Translations under genes and position numbers: made by a program
Part shown: in pieces, positions 14,037 through 29,466 of the stretch
Layout: each line of letters begins with the position of its first letter
Numbering within the stretch: position 1 is the stretch's first letter
Notes under the pieces: generated by a model
Told to the model about the DNA's origin: nothing
The model's database searches: none
What the model saw: only the letters and a program-made list of their open reading frames with translations
DNA from: an uncultured bacterium
GTDB taxonomy: Bacteria; Chloroflexota; Anaerolineae; B4-G1
Assembly: GCA_965612745.1 (NCBI GenBank)
Contig: CBFDTD010000004.1
Span: 1,253-65,252, forward strand
Length of the DNA: 64,000 nucleotides
Direction: 5' to 3'

Positions 14037-14993
14037 CTACCGGATGCGCAGAGGCGCGATACCACCGGCCTCGAACCCGCAGGCCTGATAGAAATCACGG
14101 GCGGCCGGGTCGCCCCGTGAGGTGTCTACCAAGAGATGGGTCGCTCCTCGCCGGTCCGCCCGTTGTACCGCCGCCTCCACCAGCGCCGCGCCAATTCCCT
14201 GCCGCCGGTACACCGGATCCACGGCCAGGTCGTCAATCAGGGCTCGCAGCCCGGAAAGAGCGGGAACAAATGATAGTACGAGAAGCCCTACCACCTTTCC
14301 GTCCACCTCCGCAACCAGCACGTCCATCGCCAGGCTCTCGCGGAAACGCTGGGCCGCGGCCTGTATCTCGGCCGGGCTCATATTCGCGTTGGCAGGGATC
14401 AGCGGTAGCAGTTCCAGTACCCGGGCCTCGTCCTCCGCACGGGCCTCGCGGATGACGACGCCTGGCATCTCGACGCGGAATTCCGGCGAGCGGCTGCGCA
14501 CCCAGCGGGCGATCACCTCCCGGTGGGTGCGGAAAGCCAGTTTCTCAGGCAGCCCATCAGGTGGAAAGACACCCACATCCTGCGCATCGTCTCCCGCCCG
14601 CAGTTCTCCGCCCACCGGCCGGGCGCGGTAGAAGATGATGATGCCGCTCTGCCCTGGTCCCTCCGGAAAGGAGTAGACGCCGAACAGTTCCAGAAGTTCG
14701 ACGTCGAGGCCGGTCTCCTCCTTGCACTCCCGCACCGCCGCCTGCTCGACGCTCTCGTCGGCCTCGATATAGCCAGCAGGGAGGGCCCACCAGCCCACAA
14801 AGGGCGGCTGGCCCCGCTTGACCAGCACGATGCCACCCCCCATCTCCACCAGCACACCGGCGCCAGGCACCGGGTTGCGGTAGAGGATGAACCCACAGGC
14901 GGGACAGACCTCCCGCATGCGCCCGCTTACCTCGGCTGTCTCCATCGCCGTCCCGCAGCGGGGACAGTAGGTCACTTTATCGTTGTTCCCCAT
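14037..14993 (-). CDS. Zinc-ribbon NUDIX hydrolase fused to a GNAT acetyltransferase
   Basis: CPRC/CPAC ribbon, Nudix box GYIEADESVEQAAVRECKEETGL, GNAT motif A VDPVYRRQGIGAAL. Confidence 0.85.
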   Translation of the reverse strand: MGNNDKVTYCPRCGTAMETAEVSGRMREVCPACGFILYRNPVPGAGVLVEMGGGIVLVKRGQPPFVGWWALPAGYIEADESVEQAAVRECKEETGLDVELLELFGVYSFPEGPGQSGIIIFYRARPVGGELRAGDDAQDVGVFPPDGLPEKLAFRTHREVIARWVRSRSPEFRVEMPGVVIREARAEDEARVLELLPLIPANANMSPAEIQAAAQRFRESLAMDVLVAEVDGKVVGLLVLSFVPALSGLRALIDDLAVDPVYRRQGIGAALVEAAVQRADRRGATHLLVDTSRGDPAARDFYQACGFEAGGIAPLRIR

Positions 14994-15052
14994 ATTCACC
15001 ACCTATACAAAGCAGGACGCGGATTCATGCAGGCTTTCGCAGATAAGCACAA

Positions 15053-16561
15053 TCAGCGTGAATCTGCGCCCTTCCCCGGCAATAGTTCGGCCCGCAGTTG
15101 GGGCGCATAGGTATCAATGATCTCAGGGGTGATAGCGTTGGCCCGGATGACGTCGGCATAGAGTTTGGCACTGCGACGCGGCCTGCGCCCTCCCCTGGGA
15201 CCGAGCGCGATGAGGCCGAAACGCAGCGTCCACCCCTGCGCCCACTCGAAATTGTCCACCAGCGTCCAATGGTAGTAGCCCATCACCGGGTAGCACAACT
15301 GGATCGCATGCCACATCTGATGCAGATGGGTCAGAATGTAGCGCGGTCGCTGGTCGTCATCATCGTCGGGGATGCCGTTCTCCGTGACGTAGATGGGCAG
15401 GCCCAGACGTGCCAACCGCCGGAGGCAGCGGAACATCCCACGGGGATAGAACTCGCCGTATCCGCCATCGAGCAACTCGGCACCCTCGGCGTGCAGGCGG
15501 CGGCTGAAGAGCGCCTGCCGCTGCGTGCGGTCGAAGGCGACCAGGTCACGGGTATAGTAGTTGAGGCCGATCCAGTCGAGCGTGTGCCGCAGTTTCCAGG
15601 CCAGGCCCAAACCCAGCGGCAATGTCCAACGCCCTCGGAGCAATGCGGTCAGGATAGCCTGGTTGTAGGTCTTATCCACCAGCCGGGCGACGCGCCGGTC
15701 CAGCGGCGAACGGGGATTGGCCGGGTCGAAGATGCGCATACTGTGGGCGAAGCCGACACGGGCCTGGGGTTGAAGGGCGTGAATCTCGCGGTAGGCAGCC
15801 GCGTGGCCCGCGAGGAGGTTACGGACGACGCGCATCGCCGCTTTGAAATCGGATTTACCGGGTGGAAAGACGCCCTCCAGGTAGCCCATATAGCCGTAGA
15901 CGTTGGGTTCGTTGATGGTGCACCACAGGTCGCAGTGCTCACCCAGCGATTCGACGACCCGGCGCACGAAGCGGGCGAAAAGCGCGACGGTCTCCGGGGC
16001 CTCCCAGCCGCCACGCTCGGCCAGCCAGCGGGGGTTGGTGAAATGGTGCAGCGTGACCATCGGCTCGATGTTACGCCCACGCAGACCCTGCAACATCTCA
16101 CCGTAGCGCGCCAGCGCAGAATCGTCGAATTCGCCGGGGCGGGGCTCGACCCGCGACCACTCGACCGAGAGGCGGAGCGCGTTCAGGCCCAGTTCGACGG
16201 CGCGGTCGAAATCGGCCTCGGCGTTCTTCCACCAGTTGCAGGCCCGGCCCGACTTGTGTCCCTCCTTGATGCGGCCCTCCTGCTGCTCCCAGGCCCACCA
16301 GTCGTTGTTGGTGTTATCCCCCTCGACCTGATGGGCGGCAGTGGCGACACCCCATTTGAAGTCGGCGGGGAAGTGGAAGGTGGCTCGGGGCATCAGCGCT
16401 TCCTCCACGACAGAGGGGGCGCCGGCCTCGATAGGAGCGCTCTCGACCTCTTCATGCTCGAACGTGGAAGTCGGTTCCTCCTCGTGGATCCACTCCAGGT
16501 CCATACCCTCAAACGGATCGTGGCCCAGGACTTTGTCAGACTTTTGCTCTTTTTTGACCAT
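15053..16561 (-). CDS. Glycoside hydrolase family 1 beta-glycosidase with a 56-aa acidic N-terminal extension
   Basis: ATAAHQVEG, SVEWSR, acid/base TINEP, nucleophile VTENG, WTLVDNFEW; second in-frame ATG (MPRATFHF) preceded by GGAGGA. Confidence 0.92.
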   Translation of the reverse strand: MVKKEQKSDKVLGHDPFEGMDLEWIHEEEPTSTFEHEEVESAPIEAGAPSVVEEALMPRATFHFPADFKWGVATAAHQVEGDNTNNDWWAWEQQEGRIKEGHKSGRACNWWKNAEADFDRAVELGLNALRLSVEWSRVEPRPGEFDDSALARYGEMLQGLRGRNIEPMVTLHHFTNPRWLAERGGWEAPETVALFARFVRRVVESLGEHCDLWCTINEPNVYGYMGYLEGVFPPGKSDFKAAMRVVRNLLAGHAAAYREIHALQPQARVGFAHSMRIFDPANPRSPLDRRVARLVDKTYNQAILTALLRGRWTLPLGLGLAWKLRHTLDWIGLNYYTRDLVAFDRTQRQALFSRRLHAEGAELLDGGYGEFYPRGMFRCLRRLARLGLPIYVTENGIPDDDDDQRPRYILTHLHQMWHAIQLCYPVMGYYHWTLVDNFEWAQGWTLRFGLIALGPRGGRRPRRSAKLYADVIRANAITPEIIDTYAPQLRAELLPGKGADSR

Positions 16562-17309
16562 CGCGGAAAACCCTCTCTACCAGACGTGCGTAGTCAATCG
16601 CGGCCAGGCTCTTGGGCGCGTATTCGTAAATGCTCATACGGTGACTGGGCGCTTCAGAAAGTTTCACGCTCGCTCGGATCGGCGCGGTCACCTTGTCAGC
16701 GAAGTAGCGTTGCAGGGTCTCCATCACCTCGCGATCTTTGCGCAAGCGGGCGTAGTAGAAGGTGGGAACGATCAGGTAAAGCCGAACGCGATGCCCGTGC
16801 ACCCGGCCGATGGTCTTGAGTGTCTGGATCACCTGACGGGTTCCTATCAAGGCCAGGTAATTCATCGCCACCGGCACGATGAGTTCCCGGACGTATAACA
16901 GGCCGCTCTCGCTCAGGAGGCTGGCCGAGGGCGAGAAATCGAGAATGATGTAATCGTAGTCGTCCTCCAGGCCCCGCAGTCTACCGACCAGCACTCGCCG
17001 GGCTATGAGGCGATTGTCTATGCGCCATAGTTCCCCCTCGGCCCGGAGCAGGCCCTCATCGCCGGCAATGAGGTCGAGGTTATCCCGCGCCCGGACAATG
17101 CAGGTTCGCGGGTTCGCCTGCCCCAACAAGAGGTGAGCGAGAGAATAGGTGTAGTGCACGCCTAGGTACGTCGCCAGGCTGCCTTGAGCGTCCAGGTCAA
17201 CACACAGAACGCGCTCCCCACGCAAGGCCAGGCCGGCGCCCAGGTTTACTACCGTGGTCGTCTTGGCCGTGCCTCCCTTGTAGTTCAGCACACCAATAAT
17301 CCTGCCCAT
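16536..17309 (-). CDS. Orphan ParA/Soj-family ATPase
   Basis: Deviant Walker A KGGTAKTT, DLDAQGS, IILDFSPS, LSEAPS; no ParB partner; overlaps the GH1 start by 26 nt. Confidence 0.9.
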   Translation of the reverse strand: MGRIIGVLNYKGGTAKTTTVVNLGAGLALRGERVLCVDLDAQGSLATYLGVHYTYSLAHLLLGQANPRTCIVRARDNLDLIAGDEGLLRAEGELWRIDNRLIARRVLVGRLRGLEDDYDYIILDFSPSASLLSESGLLYVRELIVPVAMNYLALIGTRQVIQTLKTIGRVHGHRVRLYLIVPTFYYARLRKDREVMETLQRYFADKVTAPIRASVKLSEAPSHRMSIYEYAPKSLAAIDYARLVERVFRDGQKRAKV

Positions 17310-17579: not shown

Positions 17580-18335
17580 TCAGATATGCTCTCGAATGAA
17601 CTCGTATGTCCTCTCCGCTACCGTCTCCCACTCACTGTCCACGGTGAGGCAGTGCCCCGAGTTATGGAGTGTGACCAGTTCTTTGTCGGTGGAACCGACC
17701 CGCTCGTAGGTGTAGCGGGCGCTTTGGGGATGGATGGCCTGGTCGAGGGTGCTGTGGATGATGAGCAGAGGGCAGGTCACCCGTGGCAGGAGTCGCCGCA
17801 CACGGAAGATCAGTTTCAGGAGTTCGTGGGCGGCGGAGACGGGGTTCTCCTCGTAACTCCACAGGCGCAGGTCAGCCTCGGGGTCGGTCAGGTCACTCTC
17901 GCCGGACTTGGGCTTCTTGTGAACCAGGTACTTGAGGACAGGGGTCAGGTAGATAAGCCGGTCGGCCACTATAACGGCGGGGGAATAAAGGACGGCCCCG
18001 GCCAGTTCGGAATGGTGGGCGGCCAGGTAGAGGGTGAGCAGGGAGCCCATAGAGAGACCGCCGACGAAAACCGTCTCGCAGCGAGCCTGGAGGTCGGCCA
18101 GTGCGTGCTCCACGTGACCGGTCCAGTCGGTCCATCGGCAGCGGTTCATGTCCTCCACAGTGGTCCCGTGGCCCGGCAAGAGCGGTCCGGAGACAGTGAA
18201 GCCCCGCTGATGGAGGAAATCCCCCACCAGGCGCATCTCCGGCGGGGAGCCGGTGAAGCCATGGATAAGCAGCACCCCGACGGGACCACTCTCCAGGAAA
18301 AAGGCAGATGGATCAAGGTGTGAGTGTCGGGTCAT
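17580..18335 (-). CDS. Alpha/beta-fold carboxylesterase/lipase
   Basis: HGFTG oxyanion motif, GLSMG nucleophile elbow, D in STLDQ, H in SGH. Confidence 0.9.
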   Translation of the reverse strand: MTRHSHLDPSAFFLESGPVGVLLIHGFTGSPPEMRLVGDFLHQRGFTVSGPLLPGHGTTVEDMNRCRWTDWTGHVEHALADLQARCETVFVGGLSMGSLLTLYLAAHHSELAGAVLYSPAVIVADRLIYLTPVLKYLVHKKPKSGESDLTDPEADLRLWSYEENPVSAAHELLKLIFRVRRLLPRVTCPLLIIHSTLDQAIHPQSARYTYERVGSTDKELVTLHNSGHCLTVDSEWETVAERTYEFIREHI

Positions 18336-18339
18336 TTTT

Positions 18340-20298
18340 TTACCTCGGTAGTGGAGTATTGGAGACTAGAGTATTGGAGACTAGAGATGTGGTTCGCAGC
18401 CAGACCCGCATAGGGCCGGGGGCGCGGTTGGCCCAGGCGTAGTAAGGAATGGCGGTTACCTCCATAAGCCGGCCCCGCTGTTTCTCCGAACAGGGAACCG
18501 CCGTGCGGTAGAGGCGATCCGCCCAGATAGCGTCCGGCGGAATGGCCTCGGCCTGACCGCGCAGCACGACCACGCCGCCGAGCAAGTCGGGCCGGAAGGC
18601 GACTGTAAAATCGGCATCAGCGGGCAAGAGGACATCGCGCAGGTCGAGACCAGGGTTATCGGCCTCCTCGACGCAGTAGAGGATTGGGCCGCGCATCAGG
18701 GCGACCCGGCCCGCGTTCTCAGCGACGTAGGGATGGCACTCGACGCGGCGCACCGGCATCGGCAGGTTGAGCCGCACGACATCGCCCGGCCGCCAGGCAC
18801 GGCGAACCTCGGCGTAGGAGCCGGGAGTAAGCACGCTGGCGAAAGGCTCCCCACTGACTTCGAGCACGGCCCCTTCCTCGCACCAGGCGGGGATGCGCAG
18901 CCAGAGGCTGAAAGTCCCTTCCCCCTCAATTTCGATGGCGATCTCGCCGTCCCACGGATAGCGGGTGTGCTGGGTCAGGCCGATGGTCGGGCCATTGAGG
19001 AGGGAGATGCGGGCAGCCCCCTGAGCGTAGAGATGCACCCACAGCCCGGCGTCAGAGAGGCTGTAAAAGTAGCCGGGAAGCGACGCGAGAAGGCGGGCAA
19101 TGTTGGGTGGACAGCAGGCGCAGCCGAACCACGGCTGGCGGCGGTGCGTCCCGTCGTCGGCCAGGGGGTTCTGGTAGAAGTAGGCTCGGCCGTCCAGCGA
19201 GACGCCGCAGAGGACAGCGTTGTAGAGCGTGGTCTCCAAGACGTCGGTGTAACGGGCATCGCCTGTTATCTGAAGCATGCGCCAGTTCCACATCGCGCTG
19301 CCGATGGCGGCACAGGTCTCCGCGTAGGCACGCTCATTGGGTAGTTCGTAGTCTCTTCCGAACGCCTCGCCCTCGTAGCGCGAGCCGATGGAGCCGTTGA
19401 TGTACATCTGCCGCGCGGTCATATTGCGCCAGAGGCAGTCGAGCGCGTCACGCAGGGCGGCCTCGCCCGTCTCGGCGTAAAGGTCCGCCGCCCCTGCGTT
19501 CAAATAGACGGCACGCACGGCGTGACCCACCATCCGCTCCAACTCCCGAAACGGCTTGTGGTCCTGATGATAGGCGCTGCCGCCGATCAGTCCGCGCCCA
19601 CGCATGTCCAGGAAGAATTGCGCCTGCCGGCAATACCTCGGCTCACCCGTCTCACGCGCCAGTTCGACCAGCGCCATCTCTATCTCCGGGTGGCCGCCGG
19701 TTCCGGCCCGCTTGCCCTCCTCCTGCGGCCCGAAGCGGTCGCAGATGTGGTCGGCCAGACGGCGGACGATGTGGAGCAGGCGGTCATCTCCGGTGGCACG
19801 GTGGTGGGCGACGGCAGCCTGGATCAGGTGCCCGGCGCAGTAGAGTTCGTGCATGTCGCGCAGGTTGGTCCAGCGCTCAGCAGCCCTCTCGTGCGTGAAG
19901 TAGGTGTTGAGGTAACCGTCGGGCTGCTGAGCGGCGGCAATCTCGGCGATCACGGTGTCGGCCATCCGCGCCAGGGCCGGGTCGGCGTCGGTGGCAAGCG
20001 TCCACGCGACCGCTTCGAGCCATTTGTAGACATCGGAGTCGTTGTAGTACCTGCCCTGGAAGGGGACGTCCACTTTACCTGCGGCACGGCGGAAGTTGTC
20101 AACACGGCCGGTCTCTTCCAAAAGGCGGTACTGTGAGGGGAGCGTGTCTTCCCGATTGACCCGTCGGCGCGGCGTCCAGAAACCATCGGCGAGCGTGACT
20201 GCGGTCAGGGGTACGGGCCGCAGGCAGGCGTGCGGGCTTCGGGACGTATCTACGACCACGGCGGATGATCGGGTTCGGTCATACACGGTTCTGGTCAC
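18340..20298 (-). CDS. GH127 beta-L-arabinofuranosidase-like protein
   Basis: DSDVYKWLEA, HELYCAGH, GHPEIE, GHAVR, ETCAAIG, CACCPPN. Confidence 0.92.
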   Translation of the reverse strand: MTRTVYDRTRSSAVVVDTSRSPHACLRPVPLTAVTLADGFWTPRRRVNREDTLPSQYRLLEETGRVDNFRRAAGKVDVPFQGRYYNDSDVYKWLEAVAWTLATDADPALARMADTVIAEIAAAQQPDGYLNTYFTHERAAERWTNLRDMHELYCAGHLIQAAVAHHRATGDDRLLHIVRRLADHICDRFGPQEEGKRAGTGGHPEIEMALVELARETGEPRYCRQAQFFLDMRGRGLIGGSAYHQDHKPFRELERMVGHAVRAVYLNAGAADLYAETGEAALRDALDCLWRNMTARQMYINGSIGSRYEGEAFGRDYELPNERAYAETCAAIGSAMWNWRMLQITGDARYTDVLETTLYNAVLCGVSLDGRAYFYQNPLADDGTHRRQPWFGCACCPPNIARLLASLPGYFYSLSDAGLWVHLYAQGAARISLLNGPTIGLTQHTRYPWDGEIAIEIEGEGTFSLWLRIPAWCEEGAVLEVSGEPFASVLTPGSYAEVRRAWRPGDVVRLNLPMPVRRVECHPYVAENAGRVALMRGPILYCVEEADNPGLDLRDVLLPADADFTVAFRPDLLGGVVVLRGQAEAIPPDAIWADRLYRTAVPCSEKQRGRLMEVTAIPYYAWANRAPGPMRVWLRTTSLVSNTLVSNTPLPR

Positions 20299-20680: not shown

Positions 20681-21667
20681 ATGCCCATCAACATATTTGA
20701 CCGTGTGTTGAAGATTCTGGCCCGCAACTACGCGGCGCGATTCCTGCAACTTGCCTTCCCCACCACAGAGGTGTACCTGGCAGGCACACTGGAGAATGTG
20801 GAACTGGCCCTGCCGGAGCAGCGGGTTGACTTTGTACATCGCGTAGTGCATGCGGGACAAGAGTATCTTCTACATATGGAGTTTCAGATCGAGCATCGGG
20901 CCGAGGTGCCGCGGCGGATGTTTGTGTATTCCGCACTGTTAACGCAGCAGTTCGACCTGCCTGTCATCACGCTGGTTCTGTACCTCCAGCGTCAGGCTGC
21001 CTCCATTCCGGGCACCTACGAAGTGCGAGTGGGATCAGAACTGGTGAATAGTTTCACTTACCGTACATTGCGTCTGTGGGAGTACGAGGGGGCAATCCGC
21101 AGGGGGCAGTATCCAGAACTGGCCCCGCTGCTGGTGATGCTGGTGGAGAGGCCGGATAGAGAGATACTGACACGTGAGCGGGAGTTAATTCTGGCAGAAG
21201 AAGACCCACAGAGGCGGGCCGATCTACTGGCGTGTGCAGTGACGATTGGGGCACGCTACTTCGACAAAGAATTCCTGTGGCGGTTCTTTCGAGAGGAGGT
21301 GGAGATGCTGAAAGGAGCAAGTTTCATCGAGGATTGGCTGGAGGAGAAACTTGAGGAAGGCTTGCAGCAAGGGCTGCAGCAAGGGCTGCAGCAAGGGCTG
21401 CAGCAAGGGCTGCAGCAGGGACTGCAGCAGGGACTGCAGCAGGGCTCACTTGAAGCCCGACGGCAGGATATACTCCATATCCTGCGAACCCGCTTTGATC
21501 TCTCAGAGGAAAAGGCGACCAGAGCACTGATGGAGAGACTCCAGGAGATCGAGGACCAGGCTCTGCTGCAAGGATTGGTGATGGAGGCAGTGCAGGCTGA
21601 AAGCCTGGAGGCGTTCTGGGCTTCACTGGATGGGAGGACAGCCCAGGTCCAGGGAAAGATTGAATGA
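20681..21667 (+). CDS. Rpn/YhgA-like PD-(D/E)XK nuclease (recombination-promoting nuclease/putative transposase)
   Basis: QRVDFV...LLHMEFQ nuclease motif, RMFVY, C-terminal (GLQQ)x7 repeat and helical tail. Confidence 0.85.
   Translation: MPINIFDRVLKILARNYAARFLQLAFPTTEVYLAGTLENVELALPEQRVDFVHRVVHAGQEYLLHMEFQIEHRAEVPRRMFVYSALLTQQFDLPVITLVLYLQRQAASIPGTYEVRVGSELVNSFTYRTLRLWEYEGAIRRGQYPELAPLLVMLVERPDREILTRERELILAEEDPQRRADLLACAVTIGARYFDKEFLWRFFREEVEMLKGASFIEDWLEEKLEEGLQQGLQQGLQQGLQQGLQQGLQQGLQQGSLEARRQDILHILRTRFDLSEEKATRALMERLQEIEDQALLQGLVMEAVQAESLEAFWASLDGRTAQVQGKIE
21359..21442 (+). repeat. 12-bp coding tandem repeat (GLQQ)x7
   Basis: GG(G/C/A)(C/T)TGCAGCA(A/G) tandem units within Rpn. Confidence 0.9.
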
Positions 21668-27776: not shown

Positions 27777-28634
27777 TTACTCCCCGCTCCCGACGATGCG
27801 CTCATAGAGCGCATTCAACTCTTCCTCGGAGTAGAAGTAAATCACGATGCGTCCTCCCTCGCCGCTGCGCGTGAGGCTCACTTTCGTGCCCAGCGCCTCG
27901 CGGAAGCGGGACTCCAGCGCCCGCGTCTCCGGCGAGGGCGCATGGGCAGGCCGCTGCTCCTCCCGCAGGCCGAGCAAGCGCCGCACCAACTCCTCCGTCT
28001 GCCGCACGTTCAGCCCCCGTCTCAGGACCGCCTTGAGCGCGGCTTCCTGCGCCTCGGCCCGCTCCAGACCCAAAAGCGCACGGGCGTGCCCCTCACTGAT
28101 TTTTCCCGCCAGCAGCGCCTCTTGCACAGGACGCGCCGCTTTCAGCAGCCGTAGCGTGTTGGAGACCGCTACCCGGCTCTTGCCCACCCGCCGTGCCACC
28201 TGCTCCTGCGTCAGCCCGAACTCCTCGGTCAACTGGCGGTAGGCCATCGCTTCCTCCAGCGGGTTCAGGTCGGCCCGCTGGAGATTCTCCACCAGCGCCA
28301 GTTCCAACATCTCGCTGGGGGCCACATCCTTCACTATGACAGGAACCGTGGGTAATCCGGCCAGCCGCGCCGCACGCCAGCGCCGCTCGCCGGCGATCAG
28401 TTGATACCCATCAGGTGCTCTGGTGACGACGAGCGGCTGGATGATCCCGTGTTCCTCGATGGAAGCGGCCAGTTCCACCAGATCCTGATCACGGATCGGC
28501 GCACGGGGTTGATGGGGGTTGGGCGTGATAGAAGCGAGAGGCACTTCAACCACACCCTGTGCCGCTGCCTCTTCCTCGGCGAGAGGAATCAGCGCCTCCA
28601 GGCCCTTGCCCAGTCCCCTCTTGCGTGGTGACAT
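27777..28634 (-). CDS. parB: Chromosome partitioning protein ParB/Spo0J
   Basis: N-terminal [23 protein letters not shown] motif, [11 protein letters not shown]. Confidence 0.97.
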
Positions 28635-28671
28635 CTCTCACCTCAACGGTGGAGGTGCGGTAACCGCACCC

Positions 28672-29466
28672 TTAACGGTAACGTCCATCACCTGCCAGCA
28701 ACTCCCGCGTCAGTGCCGCATAGGCCAGCGCACCCGCCGAATGAGGCGCGTAGGATATGATGGGCTCGCCGTAACTGGGCGCTTCGCTCAGGCGCACACT
28801 GCGCGGGATGATGGTGTTAAAGACCCGGCCGGGGAAGTGCCGCCGCACCTCTTCGACGACCTGCCGTGAGAGATTGGTGCGAGCGTCGTACATCGTCATC
28901 ACCAATCCCCGCAGCCGCAACTTTGGGTTGAGGGCACGGCGCACCAACTCAATCGCGCGCACCAATTGCGAGAGACCCTCCAGCGCCAGGTACTCACACT
29001 GCACAGGGATGATCACTCCATCGGTGGCAGCCGTCAACCCGTTCACCGTCAGAATGCCCAGGCTGGGTGGGCAATCAATCAACACGTAATCGTACCGCTT
29101 GCCCTGCTCTTCGTCCGTGTTCAGCACCGCCAGCGCCTGGCGCAAGCGAGATTCCCTCTGCGGCAGGCTGACCAGTTCCACCGTCGCGCCGGCCAGCGCG
29201 GGCGAAGCAGGGGCCAGATCGAGCCGCACCCGGCCGGTGAGTTGCATGACGCGGCTTAACGAGACCCCGCGCACCAGCAGATCGTATGTGGAGAGCGGCA
29301 CGGCACGCTTATCTATCCCCAGGGAGGAGGTGGCGTTAGCCTGGGGGTCAATATCCACCACCAGAACGCGCTGCCCCCACTCCGCCAGGTAGGCCCCCAC
29401 GTTTACCGCCGTGGTAGTCTTGCCAACCCCACCTTTCTGATTAGCCAGCGCGTAGATGATCGGCAT
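28672..29466 (-). CDS. parA: Chromosome partitioning ATPase ParA/Soj
   Basis: NQKGGVGKTT, DPQANAT, DCPPSLG, VQCEY, IPRSVRLSEAPS; upstream of parB. Confidence 0.97.
   Translation of the reverse strand: MPIIYALANQKGGVGKTTTAVNVGAYLAEWGQRVLVVDIDPQANATSSLGIDKRAVPLSTYDLLVRGVSLSRVMQLTGRVRLDLAPASPALAGATVELVSLPQRESRLRQALAVLNTDEEQGKRYDYVLIDCPPSLGILTVNGLTAATDGVIIPVQCEYLALEGLSQLVRAIELVRRALNPKLRLRGLVMTMYDARTNLSRQVVEEVRRHFPGRVFNTIIPRSVRLSEAPSYGEPIISYAPHSAGALAYAALTRELLAGDGRYR

Follow-up and report, generated by a model that had tools for sequence, protein, structure and literature searches.

A predicted localisation module in uncultured Anaerolineae: a ParA-like ATPase next to a family 1 glycosidase with a putative portable N-terminal tag

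Which partner does an orphan ParA-like ATPase serve when its gene overlaps that of a glycosidase? The question is raised by a 64,000-nucleotide stretch (hereafter, the window) of contig CBFDTD010000004.1, which derives from an uncultured member of the Anaerolineae of hydrothermal-vent and marine-sediment metagenomes. On the minus strand of the window, an orphan parA gene (16536..17309) is followed by an open reading frame (ORF) of 502 residues (15053..16561) that encodes a glycoside hydrolase of family 1 (GH1) with an N-terminal extension. An earlier note on this DNA had proposed that the ParA acts on the carbohydrate-active enzyme through the extension, regarded as a fused adaptor peptide. 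The comparative evidence presented below upholds this core proposal, while the accompanying suggestions about two protein isoforms, a distinctive Walker A motif, the participation of upstream genes and the absence of any described equivalent are not borne out. We consider it probable (about 0.65) that the two genes, often together with a third coding for a Nudix-GNAT fusion, form a localisation module derived from a system of the ParC/ParP type, in which a portable tag has been moved onto a GH1 enzyme. This reading is suggested because the arrangement of tag, linker and domain beside a ParA-like ATPase is the layout of ParC/ParP.

The extension comprises the first 56 residues of the GH1 ORF, which begins MVKKEQKSDKVLGHDPFEGMDLEWIHEEEP, and all its parts are on the minus strand. 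Residues 1-30 (16472..16561) make up what is here called the tag, namely a Lys-rich tip (MVKKEQKSDK), the motif VLGHDPFEGMDLEW and an acidic tail; its core motif, LGHDPFEGMDLEW, spans residues 12-24 (16490..16528). Residues 31-56 (16394..16471) form an acidic, Pro/Ala-rich linker, predicted to be disordered from its low score in the predicted local distance difference test (pLDDT). What the earlier note had read directly from the sequence proved correct throughout: the orphan ParA with its KGGTAKTT motif, without a ParB and overlapping the next gene by 26 nucleotides, and the 56-residue extension in frame with a GH1 whose TINEP and VTENG motifs are intact and which has an ATG of its own, with GGAGGA 7 nucleotides upstream of it.

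The conservation of the tag was assessed in a set of more than 100 homologues from Chloroflexota/Anaerolineae (61-88% identical), obtained by a whole-protein search; it should be noted that these proteins were retrieved through their GH1 domain and not through the tag. A Lys/Arg-rich tip followed by [VIL]LG[HRQD]DP[FL]E[GD][ML]Dx[EG]W was present in 113 of the 120 GH1 homologues. Most tagged proteins (89) carry two tandem copies of the tag; 23 carry a single copy, as in the window, and one carries three. The extension has a median length of 126 residues among the homologues, most of which contain an additional copy of the tag and a more extended linker in the region corresponding to residues 31-56. 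Some of the seven 'short' homologues are the result of annotation choices, since the public annotation gives protein P0113 as a 450-residue GH1 that starts internally, while the same gene (locus L040) contains an open and conserved tagged ORF of 593 residues. As the case of P0113 illustrates, automated annotation hides the tag in some GH1 records.

When 26 tag units of 30 residues were aligned, the residues L, G, D, P, F, D and W were invariant, although each of them, except Trp, was encoded by two to four synonymous codons; therefore, selection acts on the peptide and not on the DNA. The earlier note had reckoned both with an extension that is not conserved and with a stop codon between peptide and GH1 in relatives. 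The counts above speak for conservation, and no such stop codon was seen in the relatives.

Is the adjacency to parA conserved as well? A scan of 185,579 species-representative genomes with a degenerate DNA pattern that stands for LGHDPFxxxDxxW yielded 15 Anaerolineae genomes; in all of them the tag is on a GH1, with a parA gene (61-81% identical) directly upstream. Nine matches outside the Chloroflexota were rejected as tags, seven being located mid-protein in a dehydrogenase-like context (VLGHDPFISVD.AW) and two (L003 and L022) lying in no plausible ORF. Two further scans of the species-representative genomes used the patterns LG[HQ]DPFx[DG][MLV]D and G[KRHQNS]DPFE[GDE]MDxxW. The tag-retrieved genomes finally numbered 17, counting the window in, and included those of the first scan, one from the further scans (L107) and one from a ParA-based scan (L026). 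Immediately upstream of the tagged GH1, parA was present in 17 of 17 genomes, so that the absence of this adjacency in relatives, which the earlier note had also considered, was not observed. In nearly all loci the stop of parA and the start of the tagged gene overlap. The overlap is usually 8 nucleotides in relatives; that of the window (26 nucleotides, 16536..16561, minus strand), which may provide translational coupling, reflects a ParA longer by six residues. Across 16 loci with a tagged GH1 that were compared for synteny, parA and GH1 were found in 16, and the Nudix-GNAT gene in 11. The recurrence of the extension and of the adjacent parA in all the related genomes examined is far beyond chance.

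Two GH1 orthologues (L120 and L122), with cores 75-77% identical to that of the window, have neither the extension nor a parA nearby. Because both elements are missing together from these untagged orthologues, the tag and parA must have been gained or lost together. The two proteins start with MPEATFYFP or MAEATFHFP, exactly at the position of Met57 of the window protein. A third GH1, that of L121, is seemingly untagged, and a run of N is present directly upstream of its gene.

The earlier note had also asked what else the peptide might be fused to downstream of orphan parA genes. Three kinds of protein were found, namely GH1, CheW-domain and LysM proteins. The close relatives of the window ParA (at least 57% identity) are all from Chloroflexota, and are followed by an abrupt drop to the generic ParAs of other phyla (36% identity or less). 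In trees, this clade received 100/100 support and was separated from the generic ParAs by a long branch, with the GH1-, CheW- and LysM-linked ParAs interleaved near its base. In seven genomes (L032, L034-L038 and L046) whose ParAs are 65-69% identical to that of the window, the next gene overlaps the parA stop and starts with MPKDKRKTSNPLFEDPFAEP or MGKDKQKTLHSFSRDPFAEV, i.e. with a related tag, which is followed by a long Lys/Ala/Pro-rich linker. A C-terminal CheW domain (Pfam, expect values (E) of 1e-29 to 1e-32) was present in the three of these partners that were scanned (L032, L035 and L038), and the gene after the CheW-type partner encodes a methyl-accepting chemotaxis protein (MCP) in the two loci scanned in this respect (L034 and L035). 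A further pair of ParA and tagged CheW protein is located inside a che cluster in L098; its tag reads KKVMGKDPFEDMDMGWMDGEEGE, and the overlap between the two genes is 11 nucleotides.

The third type of partner was found in L039 and L042 (L039:1235-2779 and L042:5740-6955). These proteins start with ILGRDPFAGME (twice) or with ALGRDPFAGLEW, bearing one or two LGRDPFAG tags, and continue with a Pro-rich linker, a domain of about 240 residues and a C-terminal LysM domain. The central domain gave no Pfam, NCBIfam or PDB match beyond LysM, and its AlphaFold2 (AF2) model, calculated from a two-sequence alignment, had a pLDDT of 34. It is odd that a protein which bears a cytoplasmic ParA tag and lacks a signal peptide should contain a LysM domain. 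Nothing but the tag and an upstream ParA of this clade is shared by the GH1, CheW and LysM partners. The variants of the tag track the sub-clades of ParA, as would be expected of co-evolving partners.

When 1.84 billion representative proteins were searched with a profile of the 30-residue tag, 15 of them matched. Eight of them run into a GH1, and three (P0247, P0253 and P0255) look like products of truncated or frameshifted GH1 genes; three more (P0245, P0249 and P0254) were discarded, being repeat proteins of two kinds matched by chance. The last hit, P0251, is the tagged CheW-domain protein of L098 mentioned above, with 254 residues and beginning MMDSKKTISKKVMGKDPFEDMDMGWMDGEEGE. The gene order on its contig is PatA-like regulator, CheY, ParA, tagged CheW and CheR, and the ParA is 71% identical to that of the window. 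The tag is also present in its relatives P0272 (SLGRDPFEGMDMTWIDGSE) and P0351, encoded in che clusters in which parA is not adjacent. The further DNA scans described above returned GH1-type loci only and, within the limits set by the incompleteness of metagenome-assembled genomes and by the strictness of the patterns, no genome in which a tagged CheW accompanies a tagged GH1.

Several side observations were made within this clade and its partners. The contig of P0351 and the locus L099 (L099:4259-5479) contain complete che clusters (PatA-like regulator, CheY, tagged CheW, CheR, CheA, CheB and CheW) in which CheY and the tagged gene are not separated by a parA. The ATPase must be encoded elsewhere, so that a single ParA may have clients at more than one locus. 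Some linkers of the CheW-type partners (L035:5746-6870, L036-L038 and L046) are composed of 100-300 residues of Lys/Ala/Pro-rich repeats, such as AKKAAAKP, with histone H1-like matches below threshold only. Such a linker could itself bind DNA, although to our knowledge DNA binding has not been reported for known ParP proteins. P0256-P0374, CheW-domain proteins of about 208 residues that form a large family related to P0251, show a different conserved N-terminal motif, SLDDLIAEIDRETG, which may be the tag for another lineage of ParC-like ATPases. In a Caldilineaceae genome (L030:2197-3528), the gene downstream of a ParA of the clade encodes an alpha-carbonic anhydrase that is membrane-anchored, contains a LysM domain and bears no recognisable tag, and the basal ParAs of L043-L045 have no obvious downstream partner.

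The orphan ParA itself is a protein of 257 residues, and belongs to the ParA/MinD family according to Pfam (AAA_31, E 1e-36, residues 3-169; CbiA, E 1.9e-17). Residues 9-18 (NYKGGTAKTT) contain a deviant Walker A motif of the form xKGGxxK[ST] (KGGTAKTT, 17256..17279, minus strand) with the signature residues Lys11 and Lys16, and the Walker A' and Walker B aspartates characteristic of ParA/MinD proteins can be read in CVDLDAQG and IILDFSPS. The Ala in this Walker A motif had been taken as a distinguishing mark. Among 120 members of the ParA family, however, KGGTGKTT occurs in 97 and KGGTAKTT in 22 (KGGT[GA]KTT in 119), so the Ala is a minority polymorphism and was dismissed as a diagnostic feature. 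The named solved structures closest to the orphan ParA include Soj (1WCV and 6IUB, E 1e-30 to 3e-27), while the structure of McdA (6NOO) is a weak match (E 2e-11). No ParC-specific Pfam or NCBIfam model turned up in scans of the window proteins. A C-terminal amphipathic helix is absent from the protein, and a basic residue is kept in the segment V[KR]LSEAP of the family, at a position which we take to be that of the DNA-binding arginine R189 of Soj. Because of these two features, the matrix on which this ParA acts is probably the nucleoid. No ParB-type partner adjoins the orphan parA, the next gene downstream being that of the GH1. The canonical Soj of the window (28672..29466, with NQKGGVGKTT), which is 37% identical to the orphan ParA, and its ParB (27777..28634) are 11 kb away.

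As to the enzyme, Pfam Glyco_hydro_1 covers residues 62-475 of the ORF (E 2e-82), and the catalytic domain (15053..16393, minus strand) contains the acid/base E218 in TINEP and the nucleophile E394 in VTENG. Among 52 homologues, N217, T393 and G396 do not vary, and conservation reaches 90% or more at E218, E394 and N395. The nearest solved structure is 1VFF of Pyrococcus horikoshii (E 1.6e-84), presumably a membrane-associated alkyl-glucosidase. The score against the NCBIfam BGL equivalog TIGR03356 (275.7 bits) is well below the cut-off of 478.5 bits, which indicates a divergent GH1 rather than an equivalog-level BGL beta-glucosidase. The AF2 model, based on the same number of homologues, shows a confident GH1 barrel, in which residues 1-54 have pLDDT values below 50 and are not docked onto the barrel; as modelled, the extension would be a flexible, disordered appendage. 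A signal peptide was considered for the extension and rejected, the charge being too high.

The internal ATG (16393..16391) and the GGAGGA sequence preceding it (16406..16401) occupy positions 16391..16406 of the minus strand. Because the untagged orthologues begin at this very codon, and because Met is poorly kept at the corresponding position (Met in 35 of 120 homologues, R in 34, L in 21), the most natural reading of this ATG, and of the Shine-Dalgarno sequence before it, is that of the ancestral start of the GH1 gene. The long and short isoforms suggested earlier would thus rely on a second start that is not conserved, and a short form that is deliberately maintained is not a feature of the family.

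How might such a module work? In the mechanism that we infer, ParAs of this clade would recognise their partners by a portable N-terminal tag, consisting of a Lys/Arg-rich tip, a core of the form hydrophobic-x-x-D-P-F-[E/A] and acidic residues. In the lineage of the window, the tag and a disordered linker would have been added before the original start codon of a GH1 that appears cytoplasmic and, by sequence, catalytically intact. ATP-bound ParA dimers would sit on a matrix, probably the nucleoid, where the flexible tag of the GH1 would bind the dimer and its basic tip would stimulate ATP hydrolysis. With two tags per chain in most relatives, a GH1 oligomer would presumably offer more. Instead of diffusing freely, the enzyme would be tethered to, or spread along, the pattern formed by ParA.

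Other explanations of the same data must be weighed. The tag could bind ParA as proposed, with the GH1 acting as an adaptor that attaches a larger structure, such as a cytoplasmic body of glucan or glycolipid, a patch of membrane or a chemosensory array, or with ParA sequestering or regulating the enzyme. The closest structure, 1VFF, which we presume to be membrane-associated, and the Nudix-GNAT neighbour of no known role, kept in 11 of 16 loci, would agree with this. So would the layout of tag, linker and binding domain, which mirrors that of ParP (PMC5706961). On the other hand, the conserved catalytic residues suggest that the GH1 is more than a binding module, and a candidate for a large cargo is not encoded nearby, where only housekeeping genes are found; we therefore regard this explanation as unlikely. 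More improbable still would be a role of the motif that is independent of ParA (oligomerisation, a degron or the binding of another factor), with parA and GH1 merely co-transcribed. Binding of the tag by ParA is deduced from comparison of sequences, and there are tagged CheW-like proteins that have no parA beside them, as this explanation would allow. It would leave unaccounted for that three otherwise unrelated kinds of partner have only the tag and the upstream ParA clade in common, that tag and parA were lost together, and that, at almost every locus, the tagged gene starts before parA has ended.

The idea that a deletion joined the 5' end of a parP-like gene to the GH1 by chance, leaving a neutral relic, draws on the occurrence of the tag in ParP-like proteins and on the ancestral GH1 start still visible at Met57. 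Yet the fusion has been kept across lineages whose ParAs are just 61-81% identical, and a motif that is invariant despite synonymous changes, together with a tag duplicated in 89 of 120 homologues, points to purifying selection instead of drift; neither frequent frameshifts and stops in the extensions of relatives nor a dN/dS near 1 across the tag was seen. We give this idea hardly any credence. It is rather unlikely, too, that the cell deliberately makes two forms of the enzyme, a long, tagged one bound to ParA and a short, free one starting at Met57, although this would be compatible with the proposed localisation module. The GGAGGA sequence 7 nucleotides before an in-frame ATG, which is a working start in the untagged orthologues, would permit it, whereas the low frequency of Met at this position and the fact that GGAGGA also provides the Glu-Glu codons of the acidic linker argue to the contrary.

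Some points weigh against the localisation module that we favour. The resemblance to ParC/ParP and PpfA is one of architecture, and the tagged CheW-like proteins of L099 and of the P0351 contig, which have no parA beside them, indicate that adjacency is not obligatory. We know of no obvious reason for positioning a soluble beta-glucosidase. Moreover, RNA evidence for the locus was not found, the single RNA run listed holding none of it; the 19 sequencing runs that contain the locus are all metagenomic DNA, sampled at hydrothermal vents, in marine sediments and in seawater, together with three runs filed under a coded organism name.

The neighbouring genes show which elements belong to the module. 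Downstream of the GH1, the Nudix-GNAT fusion gene (14037..15002, minus strand), identified by the Pfam domains NUDIX and Acetyltransf_1 and provided with an N-terminal zinc ribbon, is the frequent third gene. Upstream, on the same strand as parA, are the genes of an alpha/beta hydrolase (18335..17580) and of a GH127 (20298..18340). The earlier note had suggested that this esterase and the GH127 might take part in the system; they are syntenic in none of the 16 loci compared, and have been discarded as members. In the GH1-type loci for which the surroundings could be read (the window and two long contigs), the neighbours are housekeeping genes (cysS, fmt and ruvCA) and not che genes. An additional Nudix gene is located upstream of parA in L001 and L014, and the untagged GH1 of L120 is preceded by a Nudix/NrtR-like regulator. 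Because an untagged GH1 also adjoins a gene of Nudix type, and in view of the extra Nudix genes of L001 and L014, the association of GH1 with Nudix appears older than the tag. Elsewhere in the window (20681-21667, plus strand), an ORF of 328 residues contains seven tandem QQGL repeats (LQQGLQQGL...).

The known cargos of ParA/MinD proteins, i.e. chromosomes, plasmids, microcompartments, flagella, chemoreceptor arrays, the divisome and conjugation machines, are all large and are handled through dedicated adaptors. Here, an adaptor peptide is placed directly on an ordinary enzyme in more than 100 homologues, and the ParP-like adaptor of sister ATPases bears that very peptide; this natural domain swap points to the modularity of such tags. 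Full-text literature searches returned nothing on a ParA-linked glycosidase or on the LGxDPF...W tag motif, and to the best of our knowledge no GH1 with an N-terminal tag of ParA type has been described. Chances are about even that the tag is a general-purpose 'zip-code' of ParA in Chloroflexota, one basic tip with an LGxDPF core having been moved onto an array coupling protein, a GH1 and a LysM protein, all of which would be clients of the same ATPase clade. With the tagged GH1, a single soluble metabolic enzyme would for the first time be known as cargo of a ParA, and nature would offer a precedent for the engineered positioning by 'luggage tags' that has been proposed (PMC10241942). The motif would be a short, defined and testable recognition element for the whole ParA clade, and the ATPase with its 30-residue tag could serve synthetic biology as a minimal two-component tool for positioning. 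The question that follows is why a filamentous bacterium should localise a beta-glycosidase; the inheritance of a complex of low copy number, placement near transporters or the envelope, and regulation by sequestration are possible reasons.

The comparison with known systems places the module among familiar relatives, and the statement in the earlier note that no described equivalent was known turns out to be too strong, because ParC/ParP has the same design (PMC5706961). The enzyme part is that of ordinary GH1 beta-glycosidases such as 1VFF, with a full-length TIM barrel and the catalytic motifs NEP and ENG. The ATPase shares its fold family and the deviant Walker A motif with Soj, and the N-terminus of ParB, in which basic residues are followed by LGKGLEALI, loosely resembles the tag, in which basic residues are followed by LGHDPFEGM. 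In contrast to ParABS, there is no ParB or parS partner at the orphan parA, and the canonical parAB pair stands apart at 27777-29466. McdA/McdB likewise consists of an orphan ATPase of the A/D type and an adjacent partner with a charged, disordered N-terminus (PMC10241942, PMC11407121). More generally, the partners of A/D ATPases bind through charged, disordered N-termini, for which the term 'luggage tag' has been coined (PMC10241942), and such an N-terminus has been proposed both to bind and to stimulate the ATPase (PMC10241942, PMC11407121). McdB, however, is a dedicated adaptor for a large organelle, while the tag of the window is fused directly to a single enzyme, and neither carboxysome genes nor an McdB partner were found at the locus.

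The closest parallel is offered by ParC/ParP of Vibrio and Pseudomonas putida and by PpfA/TlpT of Rhodobacter sphaeroides, in which a ParA-like ATPase is likewise encoded beside a partner with an ATPase-binding N-terminus, a disordered Pro-rich linker and a cargo domain. In ParP, a Pro-rich linker connects an N-terminal region that interacts with ParC to a CheW-like domain; the interaction region was still functional when fused to a different array protein (PMC5706961). The ParC/ParP layout, complete with a CheW domain and with MCP or che genes, is indeed seen in members of the ParA clade of the window that are 65-71% identical to the ParA described here. The window departs from it in two respects: its C-terminal domain is a complete GH1 in place of a CheW-like (AIF) domain, and its genes are set among housekeeping genes and not in a che cluster, a setting which, within the clade, was encountered in L098, L034 and L035.

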